Made by a program: the position numbers and the translations under genes | Virus record (IMG/VR): IMGVR_UViG_2541047798_000009 | Reading direction: 5' to 3' (one strand) | Length of the DNA stretch: 47,650 bases | From: a virus | Lineage: Duplodnaviria; Heunggongvirae; Uroviricota; Caudoviricetes | The notes under the pieces: generated by a model | Seen by the model: only the letters and a program-made list of their open reading frames with translations | The model's database searches: none | What the model was told of the DNA's origin: nothing | In this document: piece after piece, positions 1 through 47,650 of the stretch | Layout: each line of letters opens with the position of its first letter | How positions within the stretch are numbered: the first letter of the stretch is position 1

Positions 1-221
1 ACCCGCAAACCACACTTCCCTTTAAAACGCGTAACATACATTGCTTGCGTTTAACTTTCTTTGAACTCTTGCAGAAAAATGAGAATTCGTGAGTACGATC
101 ACTCAAAATCGCCTGGCAAAAATAAAATCACCCTATAGATGCACAAAAAACGGGCAAAACTACCTGGTTCGCAAAACTGCGTCTAAAGTTAAACCGGGAC
201 CTCGCGAGCAAGGGTGAGACG

Positions 222-290
222 ATGGCGCTTTACACAATTGGTGAAGTGGCGTTGCTTTGTGATATTAACCCTGTCACGTTACGCGCGTGA
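222..290 (+). pseudogene. mlrA: 5' fragment of a MerR-family regulator gene (MALYTIGEVALLCDINPVTLRA then TGA), interrupted at the prophage junction
   Basis: ATG at 222 encodes MALYTIGEVALLCDINPVTLRA, a MerR-type HTH N-terminus recalled from memory as matching E. coli MlrA/YehV; the frame hits TGA where Trp is expected and downstream sequence is phage-like. Identity to mlrA is from memory, not a search. Confidence 0.45.
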
Positions 291-404
291 CGCAACATTT
301 TTAAAAATCGACGAAGATCGTCCAGGAGCGCCATTTTTCAAGGGTTGGACAGATGATTCGTTTTCGATGTCGACGAACTTCGACGGATTTCGCCGATAAA
401 AAGT

Positions 405-448
405 GTCCCATACATGCCCCATAGATGCCCCATAGATGCCCCATAGGC
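405..448. repeat. Four tandem copies of an 11-bp unit (GCCCCATAGAT, two perfect, two degenerate)
   Basis: Direct reading: gtcccatacat / gccccatagat / gccccatagat / gccccataggc immediately upstream of the dinI-like promoter; the period is about one helical turn. Confidence 0.8.
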
Positions 449-459
449 AATATTACCAA

Positions 460-512
460 TTGACACTGGTTATCCACACAGCTAAAAATAACACCTGTAC
501 ATAACTACAGTT
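460..512 (+). promoter_or_regulatory. Sigma70-like promoter (TTGACA -35, 17-bp spacer, TAAAAA -10) with overlapping LexA box CTGT-N8-ACAG
   Basis: -35 TTGACA at 460-465; -10 at 483-488; acCTGTacataactACAGtt at 493-512 matches the SOS box pattern CTGT-N8-ACAG with AT-rich spacer; AGGAGG RBS and ATG at 526 follow. Confidence 0.7.
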
Positions 513-525
513 ACAGGAGGGGGTT

Positions 526-774
526 ATGCGTGTTGAGATCTGTATCGCTAAAGAAAAAATCAGCAAAATGCCGAAAGGTTCTGTTCCTGCTCTGCAGCAA
601 GAAATGCTGCGCCGCATAGGTAAGCGATATGACGATGCAGATGTGATCGTTAAATCTGCCAGCAATGATGGACTCACCATTTTAAGAGCCGTCGATAAAG
701 AATCAGCACTGGAGTTCGTACAGGAAACACTACAGGAAGTCTGGCAAACCGCGGACGACTGGTTTATGCAATAA
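526..774 (+). CDS. DinI-like damage-inducible protein (82 aa)
   Basis: Translation [40 protein letters not shown]...WQTADDWF resembles E. coli DinI in length and in the N-terminal MR.E..IAK and C-terminal ADDWF motifs; preceded by a LexA box and strong RBS. Confidence 0.85.
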
Positions 775-865
775 CGGGATCATAATCACTGTAATGACCT
801 GTTTTGTATGACATTCTTAAAAGGCATAACAACGAGCTTGTCGTTTCAAGCGACTTCTTCTGGTT

Positions 866-892
866 GGGGAGCCTGAGTGCTCCCCTTTTTTT
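866..892 (+). terminator. Rho-independent terminator after the dinI-like gene
   Basis: GGGGAGC-ctgagt-GCTCCCC hairpin followed by a run of 7 T. Confidence 0.7.
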
Positions 893-1188
893 CAGCTAAA
901 AATCAGCATACAGCCATACAATCCCGCACAGGCCACCACCGGCACCACAAAATCCATCAGACTGGCCACATTCCACACACGCGGATCAAAACCGCCCCAC
1001 CACGGCATGTTCTGTCTGTGACCATCACCAAAACGCTTAATCCAGCGATATTCTGCCTGGGTATGTTCTCGGGCAATAAAGAACGTACAACCCGCTATCG
1101 CTCCGTAAACCCAGTCACCGGTAATGCACCCGACCAGCCCCTGCACGGCTACTGCACAAATTGCATGAAGTATCGGCGTGATATCCAT
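892..1188 (-). CDS. Hypothetical small membrane protein (98 aa)
   Basis: ORF with hydrophobic segments (ILHAICAVAVQGLVGCITG..., DFVVPVVACAGLYGCMLIF); function not recognised. Confidence 0.45.
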   Translation of the reverse strand: MDITPILHAICAVAVQGLVGCITGDWVYGAIAGCTFFIAREHTQAEYRWIKRFGDGHRQNMPWWGGFDPRVWNVASLMDFVVPVVACAGLYGCMLIFS

Positions 1189-28838: not shown

Positions 28839-30800
28839 TCATGCCGCGGCATCCGCGTTGTTCACTTCCACCTTCACACTGTCAATCAGCAGCGTATATG
28901 TCGCCGCCTTTGATATGCCTGTCAGTTGCAGTTTGTCCGCCGCCCCTGATGCCGGAGATTTCACCAGTGTGAACGGCGTCCCCCGTTTCTCATCCAGTAC
29001 CGGCGTCACCTGAATGCTGTTGTTTCCGGCAAACTCAAAAGCCAGTGTGTGCCATCCGTTATCAAAGACCCCGAACGTATCCAGCTTCGCATTCGGCTTC
29101 TTGTGGTGCATCGCGTTCAGGTTCGTCGCATCCGTCTGCAGGAAGAAGGACATCAGCATGTCGTTGCCTTCCTCTGCCAGCGTCACTCCCTCCGGCAGGG
29201 ACGACAACTGCCAGTAAATGCCCAGGGCAAACTGATTCGGCACCAGTGAACCCGGCAACTTAAACCGTACGCTCACACGTCCCCCCTTCTTCAGTAACTC
29301 CACTCCCTGTCCGGCTGCATCATGCTCCAGAAACCAGATGTGGTTTTCCGGTTTATTCAGTTGCAGGGCCTTACCTCCCGTAGCCCCCGCATCACTGACC
29401 ACCGCTTCAGCAATGTTTTTGTTAACATTGTCTCCGCTCGCCGGTTTGTGATAATAGCGCCAGCCCTGTGATGCCAGGTCTTCGCCGGACGCCAGCAGAC
29501 TCATCAGGGTTCGGTTACTGACCGGGGCTTCCGGCTCTCTCTCCGTACCTTCACCGGAAGGTCCGGTGGGCTTCACCGTATCAGGCTGTTTTCCGGTAAT
29601 GAATTCAGCGTTTCTCCCGGCATGCACAAGAATCGCCGTTGCCAGACGGTCGGAAATAATCCCACGACGTGCCCATGATCCAAAATGCGTTTTACGGTCA
29701 GCCGTCGTCCAGGTTTTGGCGTCCGTTCGACCACCGGCTCCGTAATACCCAATATCCGCAACATCCGGATCTTCTGACGGCTCGTTGGTACCCACATTTC
29801 GCCCGTTTTCATCCGTCATAAACGGCACAAAGAAGATTTTTTTTGCGGATTTCGTCTTGTATGCACCATACACCGCATCGTATTGCGAAGAATAAGTCTG
29901 CTTCCAGTAGTAGGTCGTGTCGCCACAAATCCAGGGAACTGATGACGGAGAGCCCCCGAGACACTGACCTCCGAATTCCGACAGGTCAGAACGATATTTT
30001 TCCACCATGGAATCAAACAGCCCCGGCTGAGTGGCGTATGCACCCTGTTTCAAATCAAACTCGCCCTGCATCCAGACCACTGCAAGCAGAATATTTTTAG
30101 GGTTGGCCTTCAGTGCGGCCTGAGTACGGGTAAGCAGGTCCTTGTACAGTGGCTTATCTACACCCCAGCGTGCCGAGGTCTCGCTTGCGCCGGTGGATTC
30201 GCTGAAGGTACCTTCATCGCCCGCCAAAAATGCAGAACCACCACGGCAGCACGGAACCAGAAGAATACCGGCATTCGCCGGAATAAACGGCAACAATTTC
30301 TTCGCGATATGTAATCCCTGCCCCACGCATCCATACTGAGCTGCGCTGGCTTTCGGGTGTGAAAACTTACTCAAATCCTGAACATCATGCAGGCAGTGGT
30401 CCGCAGGAATAATGTCATTGTAGTTACAGGACGCACCACCCGGCGTGACAGTGCTGCGACGCGCCAGCTGTTTAATACGCGGGTCCGGACGGTCATATGT
30501 CTCCGGCAGCGGAAGCCCTTCACCATACGCCATACCGTTTGACTGCCCGGCCAGGGCAACAACAAAGTAATACTCCGGGTTGCTGGTGGTGCTGATAACT
30601 GCGCCTTCTCCATCCGACGGCTTCACCACCACAGGTGTGGTGACATCACCTTCCGCCGCAATGGCCTGCATCAGGGTATAAGGCGTGATGGCCACCGGAC
30701 TGCCAAATGGCTGCCACCCCTCCTTCAGTTTTTGTGTCAGTCGTTTCGCAAGGTCTGACGGCGATGCCGCCCTGACCACGTCATAGTGTTTAAATGCCAT
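28839..30800 (-). CDS. Prophage sialate O-acetylesterase (NanS-p-like: DUF1737 N-domain plus SGNH esterase, 653 aa)
   Basis: N-terminal MAFKHYDVVRAASPSDLAKRLTQKLKEGWQPFGSPV... and size match the large esterase ORF found downstream of stx in Stx phages, as recalled. Confidence 0.8.
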   Translation of the reverse strand: MAFKHYDVVRAASPSDLAKRLTQKLKEGWQPFGSPVAITPYTLMQAIAAEGDVTTPVVVKPSDGEGAVISTTSNPEYYFVVALAGQSNGMAYGEGLPLPETYDRPDPRIKQLARRSTVTPGGASCNYNDIIPADHCLHDVQDLSKFSHPKASAAQYGCVGQGLHIAKKLLPFIPANAGILLVPCCRGGSAFLAGDEGTFSESTGASETSARWGVDKPLYKDLLTRTQAALKANPKNILLAVVWMQGEFDLKQGAYATQPGLFDSMVEKYRSDLSEFGGQCLGGSPSSVPWICGDTTYYWKQTYSSQYDAVYGAYKTKSAKKIFFVPFMTDENGRNVGTNEPSEDPDVADIGYYGAGGRTDAKTWTTADRKTHFGSWARRGIISDRLATAILVHAGRNAEFITGKQPDTVKPTGPSGEGTEREPEAPVSNRTLMSLLASGEDLASQGWRYYHKPASGDNVNKNIAEAVVSDAGATGGKALQLNKPENHIWFLEHDAAGQGVELLKKGGRVSVRFKLPGSLVPNQFALGIYWQLSSLPEGVTLAEEGNDMLMSFFLQTDATNLNAMHHKKPNAKLDTFGVFDNGWHTLAFEFAGNNSIQVTPVLDEKRGTPFTLVKSPASGAADKLQLTGISKAATYTLLIDSVKVEVNNADAAA

Positions 30801-32646: not shown

Positions 32647-33096
32647 AAAAACCCGCTCGACGGCGGGTTTAAGCTGTGTGACGAAGTAACCACTCTTAAC
32701 AGCATAACCAATTTTTTACGTACGTAAACTACTAAATGATATTTGTGAGAATGCCACCGAGTGTTCAAAACACCACCACAAATACATAAGAAAACCTCAA
32801 CAAATAACCAATGAATAATTTCCGATGTTATTTTTAGGTTGTTTAAATTAAGCCAAAAAATTATAGGGCGCTTATAAATAAGTGTCATTAATATAAATTA
32901 GCTAATAGATTTATTTTTGTTCAAACAAGAGCCATGAATAGGATTAGATAGAAAAGGTTCAGATAAAAATAGAGATCTACGTCACAAATTAAATGAGAAA
33001 CTAAAACTTACATCTTGAAATAATCACATTGATTAGATGAATATTTATCGCGCAGTGACATCATTTTTTTATAATAGTTCAAAAAAAGGGCGTACA

Positions 33097-34179
33097 ATGA
33101 AAAAATTAACAGTGGCAATTTCTGCTGTAGCTGCATCAGTACTGATGGCGATGTCTGCTCAGGCAGCTGAAATTTATAATAAAGACAGTAACAAGCTGGA
33201 TCTATACGGGAAAGTTAATGCCAAGCACTACTTCTCCTCTAATGATGCAGATGATGGTGATACTACTTATGCTCGTCTTGGCTTCAAAGGTGAAACCCAA
33301 ATCAACGATCAACTGACTGGTTTCGGTCAGTGGGAATATGACTTCAAAGGCAACCGTGCTGAATCTCAAGGTTCTTCCAAAGACAAAACCCGTCTTGCAT
33401 TTGCAGGCCTGAAATTTGGTGATTACGGCTCAATCGATTACGGTCGTAACTACGGTGTAGCATACGACATCGGTGCGTGGACTGACGTTCTGCCAGAATT
33501 CGGTGGTGATACCTGGACCCAGACAGATGTGTTCATGACTGGCCGCACTACTGGTGTTGCAACTTATCGTAACAACGACTTCTTTGGTCTGGTCGATGGC
33601 CTGAACTTTGCTGCTCAGTATCAGGGTAAAAATGACCGCACTGACGTAACTGAAGCCAATGGTGATGGTTTCGGTTTCTCCACTACTTATGAGTATGAAG
33701 GATTCGGCGTGGGTGCAACCTATGCTAAATCAGATCGCACTGACGGTCAGGTCGCCTATGGTAAGAGCAAATTCAATGCCTCCGGCAAAAATGCGGAAGT
33801 ATGGGCTGCAGGCCTGAAATATGATGCGAACAATATCTATCTGGCTACCACATATTCTGAAACTCAGAATATGACCGTTTTTGGTAATAACCATATTGCA
33901 AACAAAGCACAAAACTTTGAAGCAGTAGCACAATATCAGTTTGACTTCGGTCTGCGCCCATCTGTTGCTTACCTTCAGTCAAAAGGTAAAGACCTTGGTG
34001 TTCATGGTGACCGAGACTTAGTCAAGTATGTCGATGTCGGTGCTACTTACTACTTTAATAAAAACATGTCCACTTTTGTTGATTACAAAATCAACTTAAT
34101 TGACGATAGTAAGTTTACCAAAACAGCTGGTATTGATACCGACGACATCGTCGCTGTAGGTCTGGTTTATCAGTTCTAA
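33097..34179 (+). CDS. Outer-membrane porin (OmpC/OmpF/NmpC/Lc family, 361 aa)
   Basis: Signal peptide [23 protein letters not shown] then [23 protein letters not shown]... and C-terminal ...[11 protein letters not shown]-rich promoter region upstream; antisense to late transcription as nmpC is in DLP12. Confidence 0.9.
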
Positions 34180-46076: not shown

Positions 46077-46364
46077 ATGCAGACAATCATCTATCAGATA
46101 ACCCCCAGCAAATGGTGTACGGAGAGAGTCCTCATTGCATCAACAGGGCTAAAGCCTGGCACCATTGAGCGGGCAAGAAGAAAGTCATGGATGCAGGGAA
46201 AAGAATACCGCCATTACGCTGTAGAAGGTGATCCGGGGCACTACAGTGAATGCCTGTACAACACGAAGAAATTATGCGATGGATCGAAAACCAGAAACAA
46301 CCAGGTGCCAAAAATGCAAGTTCCGGTTAACCTGTTAATGCTCCTGGACGTCTGGGAGGTTTAA
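46077..46364 (+). CDS. Excisionase-like protein (95 aa)
   Basis: Small basic ORF immediately upstream of and coupled to the integrase gene. Confidence 0.5.
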   Translation: MQTIIYQITPSKWCTERVLIASTGLKPGTIERARRKSWMQGKEYRHYAVEGDPGHYSECLYNTKKLCDGSKTRNNQVPKMQVPVNLLMLLDVWEV

Positions 46365-47650
46365 TGAGTAACGCATCATACCCGACAGGCGTTGAAAACC
46401 ATGGAGGATCACTCCGTATATGGTTTCACTATAATGGCAAACGTGTCAGAGAAAACCTCGGTGTTCCTGACACAGCCAAAAACCGGAAGATCGCTGGTGA
46501 ACTTCGCACTTCCGTTTGTTTTGCAATCAGAATGGGGAGTTTCGACTATGCCGCGCAGTTCCCTAATTCCCCTAACCTGAAACACTTTGGTCTGGGAAAA
46601 AGAGAGATAACCGTTAAGGCACTTTCGGAAAAATGGTTGGACCTTAAGAAAATTGAGATTTGTGCGAATGCACTTAACCGTTACCAGTCAGTAATTAAAA
46701 ACATGTTACCAATGTTAGGTGAAAAAAAACTGGTTTCATCCATAACAAAAGAGGATTTACTTTTCGTAAGGAGAGATTTGTTGACCGGTTACCAAAAGCT
46801 TTCTAATGGAAAGACTTCTTCCATAAAAGGGCGCTCAGTGGTCACGGTAAACTACTATATGACAACCATAGCTGGAATGTTTCAATTTGCAACAGATAAT
46901 GGTTATACCTCAGGAAACCCATTTAACGGTCTGGCTCCCTTAAAAAAGTCCAAGGTAAAACCAGATCCTCTCACCCGTGACGAATTTATTCGTTTTATTG
47001 AGGCTTGCCGTCATCAACAAACAAAAAACCTGTGGATTCTCGCTGTATACACGGGTATTCGTCACGGGGAGTTGGTATCGCTGGCATGGGAAGATATAGA
47101 CCTTAAAGCAAGGACTATAACCATCCGTAGAAATTATACAAAACTTGGCGAATTCACTCCACCAAAAACCGATGCAGGCACCGGAAGGACAATTCATCTG
47201 GTTCAACCAGCTATTGATGCTCTTAAAAGCCAGGCGGAAATGACCATGCTTGGAAAGCAACATTCTGTAGAGGTGAAGCAGAGGGAATATGGGAGAACTG
47301 CTGTGCATAAATGCACTTTTGTTTTTAGTCCTCAGGTAACAAAACAGCAGCAGTTGTCCGGACCTCACTACAAGGTTGACTCCATCAGGGAGTCATGGAC
47401 AAGTATCTTAAAACGCGCAGGTCTGAGACACAGAAAATCGTACCAATCCAGGCATACTTATGCATGCTGGTCACTTGCCGCAGGAGCTAATCCTAGTTTT
47501 ATCGCAAGCCAGATGGGCCACACAAACGCACAAATGGTATTCAATGTTTACGGAGCATGGATGAAAGACAACAATCACGAACAGATAGAACTCCTTAACA
47601 AAAGACTATCTGAAAGTGTCCCATGTATGCCCCATAAGAAAGCTGGGTAA
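46364..47650 (+). CDS. int: Tyrosine integrase (lambda Int family, 428 aa)
   Basis: Arm-binding N-terminus; catalytic region with ...RHTYACWSLAAGANPSFIASQMGHTNAQMVFNVYGAW... (R, H-x-x-R, Y pattern); ends at the last base of the window. Confidence 0.92.
   Translation: MSNASYPTGVENHGGSLRIWFHYNGKRVRENLGVPDTAKNRKIAGELRTSVCFAIRMGSFDYAAQFPNSPNLKHFGLGKREITVKALSEKWLDLKKIEICANALNRYQSVIKNMLPMLGEKKLVSSITKEDLLFVRRDLLTGYQKLSNGKTSSIKGRSVVTVNYYMTTIAGMFQFATDNGYTSGNPFNGLAPLKKSKVKPDPLTRDEFIRFIEACRHQQTKNLWILAVYTGIRHGELVSLAWEDIDLKARTITIRRNYTKLGEFTPPKTDAGTGRTIHLVQPAIDALKSQAEMTMLGKQHSVEVKQREYGRTAVHKCTFVFSPQVTKQQQLSGPHYKVDSIRESWTSILKRAGLRHRKSYQSRHTYACWSLAAGANPSFIASQMGHTNAQMVFNVYGAWMKDNNHEQIELLNKRLSESVPCMPHKKAG

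Follow-up and report, generated by a model that had tools for sequence, protein, structure and literature searches.

Tandem 11-bp repeats beside the dinI promoter of a prophage in mlrA as probable arm-type integrase sites

In the 47,650-bp stretch of caudoviral DNA recorded in IMG/VR as IMGVR_UViG_2541047798_000009 (called the window here, at its full length), four 11-bp units lie head to tail at 405–448, directly upstream of the promoter of a dinI-like gene. A lambdoid prophage interrupts the host gene mlrA (yehV) at this place. We find that the array lies in an arm of the prophage's attachment site and that its units are very likely arm-type binding sites for the prophage integrase (Int), on the P arm of attP. 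Four features of arm-type sites are observed. The array is located in an att arm at the prophage junction, the same motif is found on the opposite arm, Int carries an N-terminal arm-DNA-binding domain, and the units travel with the integrase at a conserved distance from the att core. Furthermore, the array and the dinI promoter occur apart from each other in relatives. With this arrangement the N-terminal domain of Int would bind the units, and recombination would depend on them.

The preliminary description of this region counted four copies of an 11-mer at helical-turn spacing. Reading of the sequence gives four units at an exact 11-bp spacing, but only the second and third (416–426 and 427–437) are exact copies of GCCCCATAGAT, while the first (GTCCCATACAT, 405–415) and the fourth (GCCCCATAGGC, 438–448) each differ from it at two positions. 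Tandem Repeats Finder reports the array at 407–446 with a period of 11, 3.6 copies, 96% matches and a score of 73. By chance, a sequence of 47.65 kb should contain about 0.011 exact tandem duplications of 11 bp. When up to two mismatches are allowed, GCCCCATAGAT has 11 matches in the whole window against 12 expected, which means no window-wide enrichment, and beyond this array and its twin at the end of int no further cluster of the motif is found within the 47.6-kb prophage. Only the clustering of the motif is non-random, not its frequency across the window. One match, ACCCTATAGAT at 130–140, was dismissed as chance, since the host DNA that holds it, upstream of mlrA, occurs in every E. coli.

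The prophage junction in mlrA and the att core

The first 289 bases of the window are host DNA, comprising the btsS–mlrA intergenic region and the first 68 nt of mlrA. They are 99–100% identical to uninterrupted mlrA loci, with the identity stopping at 289, and they are matched in 5426 of 5426 complete E. coli genomes, in most of which mlrA is uninterrupted. The remainder, from 290 on, belongs to the lambdoid prophage, whose tail fibre genes are encoded on the minus strand and whose excisionase and integrase genes occupy the far end, where the last base of the window coincides exactly with the end of the int stop codon. Strain AR_0017 contains DNA identical to window 1–900 and to the last 250 bases of int. 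In this strain, CCCTGTCACGTTACGCGCGTG follows 37 nt past the int stop codon, and then comes the remainder of mlrA. Since CCCTGTCACGTTACGCGCGTG is present at both prophage ends and in intact mlrA, it is the att common core. VT1-Sakai and the LC5678xx phage records already annotate this 21-bp sequence as an attachment site or insertion duplication. A perfect inverted repeat, GTCACG-TTACGCG-CGTGAC, spans 273–291, its right half being completed by the phage bases 290–291, and a terminator scan also flags this hairpin. Other cores of the family retain GTCAY-N9-GTGAY. The halves GTCACG and CGTGAC are candidate core-type Int sites, placed around a probable 7-bp overlap TTACGCG.

Both arms are found joined as a contiguous attP in the viral contig L144, which carries in order the int 3' end with two units, the core, a conserved box, three units and the dinI promoter. 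The arm with the array is the P arm in lambda nomenclature and is seen here as part of attR. Measured from the core centre, the array occupies 126–169 bp, on the side away from int.

As a side observation on the interrupted gene, RefSeq annotates mlrA in AR_0017 as almost full-length just past the right end of the window (L001 4103–4804), restarting inside the phage P' spacer. Phage DNA thus supplies the interrupted mlrA of AR_0017 with in-frame N-terminal codons, and the restarted protein would have other residues in the N-terminal half of its MerR-type DNA-binding helix.

Arm units, integrase and conserved geometry

The twin of the array is located on the P' arm, inside the integrase gene itself. 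The final int codons at 47613–47639 (AAAGTGTCCCATGTATGCCCCATAAGA) contain two units in the same orientation as in the array, 59–80 bp from the core centre. A 24-mer common to this P' motif and to 400–423 scores 18, against 8.5 ± 1.1 (maximum 12) in shuffled arms, a difference of about 9 standard deviations. The motif shared by the arms, G-Y-C-C-C-A-T, is unlike GTCACG/CGTGAC, the half-sites of the core. In a diverged int 3' end, 19 of the 21 nt of the motif are identical whereas only 15 of 39 are in the flanks (p=1e-4), and one of seven codons is changed in the motif against 13 of 13 in the flanks (p=2e-4). This island of conservation shows constraint at the DNA level. We considered the conserved C-terminal peptide P-x-M-P-H of Int as the sole cause of the P' motif and rejected it, because the motif is non-coding in the P arm and because a third unit lies in another reading frame in the relative L117.

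The protein has a domain suited to such sites. Residues 7–70 of Int match the Pfam family Arm-DNA-bind_2 (PF12167, E=2.1e-24), Int also matches Phage_integrase (PF00589, E=4.7e-18), and the catalytic domain matches the structures of Tn1549 and lambda Int. The int gene is a mosaic. When it is aligned with L010 465–1751, codons 1–99 are 94–100% identical in nucleotides to the Stx2_EH2201 type and the identity is 52–91% from codon 100, and the att core switches together with the int segment from codon 100 on. By its nucleotide profile, this mosaic is a natural exchange in which the core-recognition and catalytic module changed and the arm-binding module stayed constant. Stx2_EH2201 and Stx1_14040 possess a different core, GCCCGTCACTTTAACTGCGTG, and keep both arms. 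One arm-binding module, with its arm sites retained, would thus serve a different core-binding and catalytic module. Purifying selection was considered for the Int residues 1–99, which are 100% identical between the core types, and was rejected, as the nucleotide profile is that of recent mosaic recombination. For this reason the identity of these residues is used here for modularity only, and the argument for constraint rests on the P' island.

We compared six attP, namely two E. coli core types (the window type and Stx2_EH2201), the metagenomic phage L072, the Klebsiella phages RothC and KPP5665-2 and the 933W type, in a frame anchored on the conserved P-arm box (306–331 of the window). In the first five, the P' units start at -108/-107 and -97/-96 and the P units at +99/+100 and +110/+111. 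In the 933W type, which has the variant unit TGCCCCAA and six P units, they start at -108/-97 and +103/+114. The first five attP thus have offsets that agree to 1 bp, and those of the 933W type deviate by at most 4 bp, although cores and neighbouring genes differ and the integrases share 64–83% identity with that of the window (66% for the 933W type). The core-proximal positions 405–426 are kept in every compared attP (offsets +99 to +114), and 427–448 is the variable part.

Among close relatives, the number of units on the P arm is five in BP-4795, four in the window, three in VT1-Sakai and two in Stx1_14040 and Stx2a_1447, and 17 of the 20 IMG/VR P arms at mlrA carry three. The position of the core-proximal unit is constant wherever this unit is present; Stx1_14040 is without it. 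The spacing between the last unit and the -35 hexamer is also constant among the close E. coli relatives. The nearest kin of the window have identical units but one fewer, and the fourth unit is therefore best read as a recent gain by slippage. From these alignments, unit number varies between two and five by slippage, and the extra units appear not to be individually essential. Polymorphism of the arm-site number is also indicated by sequence in the 933W lineage, where Shiga toxin (Stx) 2 converting phage I (L146 4352–4420) carries six TGCCCCAA units as three pairs generated via a 31-bp duplication, annotated only as 'repeat_region, arrangement g/gg, region III'. In the Rac prophage of E. coli K-12, TTTGCCCC-type units are found just past the intR stop codon and again about 105–150 bp inside the other end.

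These features can be assembled into a mechanism. The C-terminal part of Int would cut and rejoin DNA at the 21-bp core, where the core-binding and catalytic domains would bind the palindrome at 273–291 and exchange strands, probably across TTACGCG. The N-terminal domain would hold the G-Y-C-C-C-A-T units, about one helical turn apart, on both arms. IHF, joined by Xis for excision, would bend the DNA that separates core and arm sites and so fold the arms back, with one integrase molecule bridging an arm site and a core site, as in lambda. The conserved set of two P' and two P units would offer one arm site to each subunit of the integrase tetramer, and the additional units at 405–448 would be extras generated by slippage. 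The dinI promoter would merely start where attP ends.

Accessory sites and other explanations of the array

Several points weigh against the assignment of the array to Int. The fold check of the Int N-terminal domain is weak, with a mean pLDDT of 55 and many unrelated matches at similar Z, and a binding or recombination experiment on this integrase was not found in the searchable literature. Arm sites of the lambda type do not usually vary in copy number, as they do here between two and five, and excisionase sites too are typically built of direct repeats spaced by one helical turn. For Rac, XisR was found to shift a 294-bp attR fragment containing the equivalent arm, and no individual sites were defined (PMC4632033). 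Finally, an IHF-like match, AATCAATTAGTTT, between the core and the P' units is a candidate bending-protein site, but it occurs on the P' side only and in the window-type attP only, and it is one base off the strict consensus.

The last points but one lead to the foremost alternative, in which the array is the site of the XisR-like excisionase, a recombination directionality factor whose monomers would polymerise on the repeats and bend the arm for excision. Sites of such factors are typically direct repeats about 10–11 bp apart, as for Gifsy-1 Xis (PMC2603039), the shift of the Rac attR fragment by XisR (PMC4632033) fits this explanation, and every phage with the array also encodes a DUF1233-type Xis. 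The helical spacing is thus as expected, but the confinement to one arm is not observed: the motif occurs on both arms in a two-unit design, and lambda-type Xis sites are on the P arm only (PMC4880445). Moreover, the two-plus-two layout fits an integrase tetramer, and another set of repeats, at 362–396, is better placed as the Xis candidate. We consider it unlikely that the array is the excisionase site.

In these other repeats, which Tandem Repeats Finder detects at 370–396 with a period of 10 and 2.7 copies, we see candidate Xis sites by analogy with known systems. The lambda X1 and X2 sites likewise lie between the core and the arm units (PMC4880445), and the attP site bound by Gifsy-1 Xis consists of three imperfect repeats in direct orientation (PMC2603039). 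Their sequence is kept only loosely in the Klebsiella phages RothC and KPP5665-2, and Gifsy-1 is not among the matches listed for the excisionase (the best 40 of 153 Xis matches). The box at 299–349 is kept in all six compared attP, with differing cores and neighbours, and is a candidate region for bending proteins, IHF and/or Xis. The excisionase gene itself shows a 1-nt deletion near 46264, relative to AR_0017 and VT1-Sakai, which shifts the frame of the last approximately 22 residues and extends the open reading frame into the int start codon; the intact AR_0017 protein matches Pfam PF06806 with E=2e-29. The prophage may be impaired in excision, or the deletion may be a sequencing error.

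The preliminary description had instead proposed that the array is an upstream binding site for a phage or host factor, adding a second input to a LexA-repressed dinI promoter. Its local observations mostly hold. The array lies just upstream of the TTGACA hexamer at 460–465, ending 11 bp before it, and the downstream gene is dinI-like (Table 1). The -10 element is found at 483–489. A promoter scan pairs TTGACA with AAAAAT at an 18-nt spacer (10/12 matches), while the VT1-Sakai annotation instead reads TAAAAA with a 17-nt spacer as the putative promoter. The LexA box is real, CTGTACATAACTACAG at 495–510 being the sole CTGT-N8-ACAG in the window against 0.64 expected, but it does not overlap the promoter hexamers. 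It lies downstream of the -10 element, between this and the dinI start codon and over the likely start site, and is kept in relatives. By these sequence features the promoter has the layout of a LexA-repressed (SOS) promoter. In VT1-Sakai (AP000400), annotation already exists for the homologous promoter, SOS box and dinI gene, but not for the 11-bp repeats.

The array does look like a binding array for a phage factor, but the regulatory part of the proposal is not supported: the array belongs to the att arm and is mirrored inside int. An operator or activator site would be well positioned here, since activators and UP elements act in the region where the array ends, and the distance from the array to the -35 hexamer is constant in E. 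coli relatives. Across the wider set, however, the constant distance is to the att core and not to the promoter. The two P units of L072 overlap the 3' end of a convergent umuD-like gene, with dinI 700 bp further away; those of RothC overlap the 3' end of a convergent hypothetical gene; and those of KPP5665-2 overlap a small hypothetical open reading frame on the minus strand, with an invertase gene ending 6 bp beyond. A dinI promoter adjoining the array is not found in any of these three phages. Conversely, TTGACA, LexA box and dinI have the same arrangement in phiSTEC1575-Stx2k, where they directly follow an unrelated integrase of 365 aa and GCCCCAT units are absent. In P-EibC the units are diverged, and 27 bp separate them from the -35 hexamer. 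The twin inside the int coding sequence is far from any dinI gene. Because each occurs without the other in relatives, the array follows the integrase and att module and not the promoter, and a role as a dinI regulator is very improbable.

A weaker form of coupling can be imagined, because the outermost arm sites end only 11 bp from a LexA-controlled -35 hexamer. Assembly of an excisive Int/Xis complex on attR after SOS induction might alter dinI transcription, or the reverse, and the number of units (2–5) might tune the frequency of integration and excision among Stx-type phages. We regard this as an unlikely speculation, to which no observation here points; if true, a variable-number recombination site would be physically coupled to an SOS gene.

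Least probable of all is a functionless, microsatellite-like repeat left by replication slippage at the prophage end: the copy number is indeed polymorphic from two to five and the nearest kin have one unit fewer, but at least two units persist, with the same two start positions in the arm, in phages of E. coli and Klebsiella and in metagenomic ones, and the motif is mirrored on the other arm under constraint at the DNA level.

The coordinates of all features discussed are collected in Table 1.

Table 1. Features of the attachment region and of the recombination genes in the window, with their positions, strand and basis
Feature	Position	Strand	Basis
5' fragment of host mlrA (yehV), cut by prophage insertion	222–289	+	partial coding sequence in AR_0017 annotation
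att common core, attR copy, CCCTGTCACGTTACGCGCGTG (21 bp)	269–289		also in intact mlrA and beyond int (L001 4120–4140)
Conserved P-arm box, about 50 bp (AAAAATCGACGAAGATCGTCCAGGAGCGCCATTTTTCAAGG... / AAAAATCGACGAAGATCGTCCAGGAGCGCC...)	299–349		kept across relatives
3–4 imperfect direct repeats, about 10-bp spacing (TTCGAT, gTCGAC, TTCGAC, TTCGCC); candidate Xis sites	362–396	+	core side of array
Four 11-bp units, proposed P-arm arm-type integrase sites	405–448	+	repeats, relatives, twin motif on other arm
Sigma-70 promoter of dinI	460–489	+	promoter scan; kept in relatives' alignment
LexA (SOS) box ACCTGTACATAACTACAGTT	493–512	+	sequence match; putative SOS box in VT1-Sakai
dinI-like gene, 82 aa	526–774	+	Pfam DinI PF06183, E=6.7e-17; RefSeq DinI-like family protein
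Excisionase gene, XisR-like, DUF1233 family, 1-nt deletion	46077–46364	+	Pfam, protein comparison, alignment
Tyrosine integrase, 428 aa, N-terminal arm-DNA-binding domain	46364–47650	+	Pfam
Two 11-bp units, GTCCCATGTAT GCCCCATAAGA, proposed P' arm-type sites	47618–47639	+	in last int codons

Elsewhere in the prophage, a 162-bp tandem repeat is found at 17470–17840 (2.3 copies, 96% matches, Tandem Repeats Finder score 686), inside a 353-aa open reading frame on the minus strand (17004–18065) for which no Pfam family exceeds the threshold. A NanS-p-like esterase (DUF1737 + SASA + DUF6645) and a porin (Porin_1, E=2.5e-151) are encoded at 28839–30800 and 33037–34179, respectively. Between the esterase and porin genes, the usual place of stxA in Stx phages, no open reading frame of at least 150 aa is present.

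Comparison with known recombination sites

Arm-type integrase sites are textbook knowledge, and no new kind of mechanism is revealed here. Described arm sites for phages at mlrA/yehV, for Stx phages or for Rac were not found in the searchable literature. The present reading gives a probable function to a repeat that is left unannotated, or is called a 'repeat region', in VT1-Sakai, BP-4795, many Stx1 and Stx2 phages, the 933W type and Rac. For IntR/933W-type integrases it also yields a testable attP map, in which a core whose overlap is probably 7 bp is combined with two conserved arm units on either side, a conserved box and a candidate Xis site. Such a map could help to predict where prophages end and to build integration vectors. 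It also bears on how Shiga-toxin phages move and on how mlrA, which regulates curli and biofilm, becomes interrupted.

A close parallel is lambda. As in the lambda P1, P2 and P'1–P'3 sites, short repeats distinct from the core sequence are found on both arms. The P' sites are adjacent at about 10–11 bp and abut or overlap the int 3' end in both systems, at +54 to +84 in lambda and at 59–80 here. The P sites lie 100–170 bp from the core, a separate N-terminal domain of Int serves, or here would serve, for arm binding, and bending sites (candidates here) are located between core and arms (PMC4880445). In the same measure, lambda P'1–3 lie at +54 to +84 with the int stop codon at +81, P2 at -111 to -102 and P1 at -142 to -133. 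There are also differences. The motif is GYCCCAT here and CAGTCACTAT in lambda. The N-terminal domain of the window's Int belongs to another Pfam family (PF12167) than that of lambda, and only the catalytic region matches lambda Int by sequence. In the window the P-arm sites adjoin one another and all point the same way, while those of lambda, P1 and P2, stand apart and are inverted. Unlike in lambda, the unit number is polymorphic, and the arm-site role of the units here is proposed from sequence.

Rac IntR/XisR and the Stx2 phages of the 933W/VT2-Sakai type have the same integrase and excisionase families (named intR and xisR in RefSeq) and, as here, two-armed repeats of the GCCCC(A/T) type, with similar offsets in the 933W type. 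They differ from the window in their cores and target genes (ttcA for Rac, wrbA for 933W) and in the unit variant (TTTGCCCC and TGCCCCAA, respectively). The P array of the 933W type, unlike the one here, consists of three unit pairs and is annotated, if at all, only as 'repeat_region, arrangement g/gg'.

The tripartite Xis site of Gifsy-1 and the lambda X1/X1.5/X2 sites also resemble the array in being direct imperfect repeats on the P arm about one helical turn apart (PMC2603039, PMC4880445). These Xis sites are confined to one arm, between the core and the outer Int arm site, whereas the units here are on both arms and the repeats at 362–396 occupy the Xis-like position.

For the dinI side, the counterpart is the LexA-repressed dinI promoter of VT1-Sakai (H0001), with a homologous promoter, SOS box and gene. 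Window 290–530 is about 90% identical to this region, and nothing essential differs apart from one more 11-bp unit upstream in the window. The promoter, SOS box and dinI were thus already known, and the array is most likely a previously unannotated part of an ordinary lambda-type recombination site.
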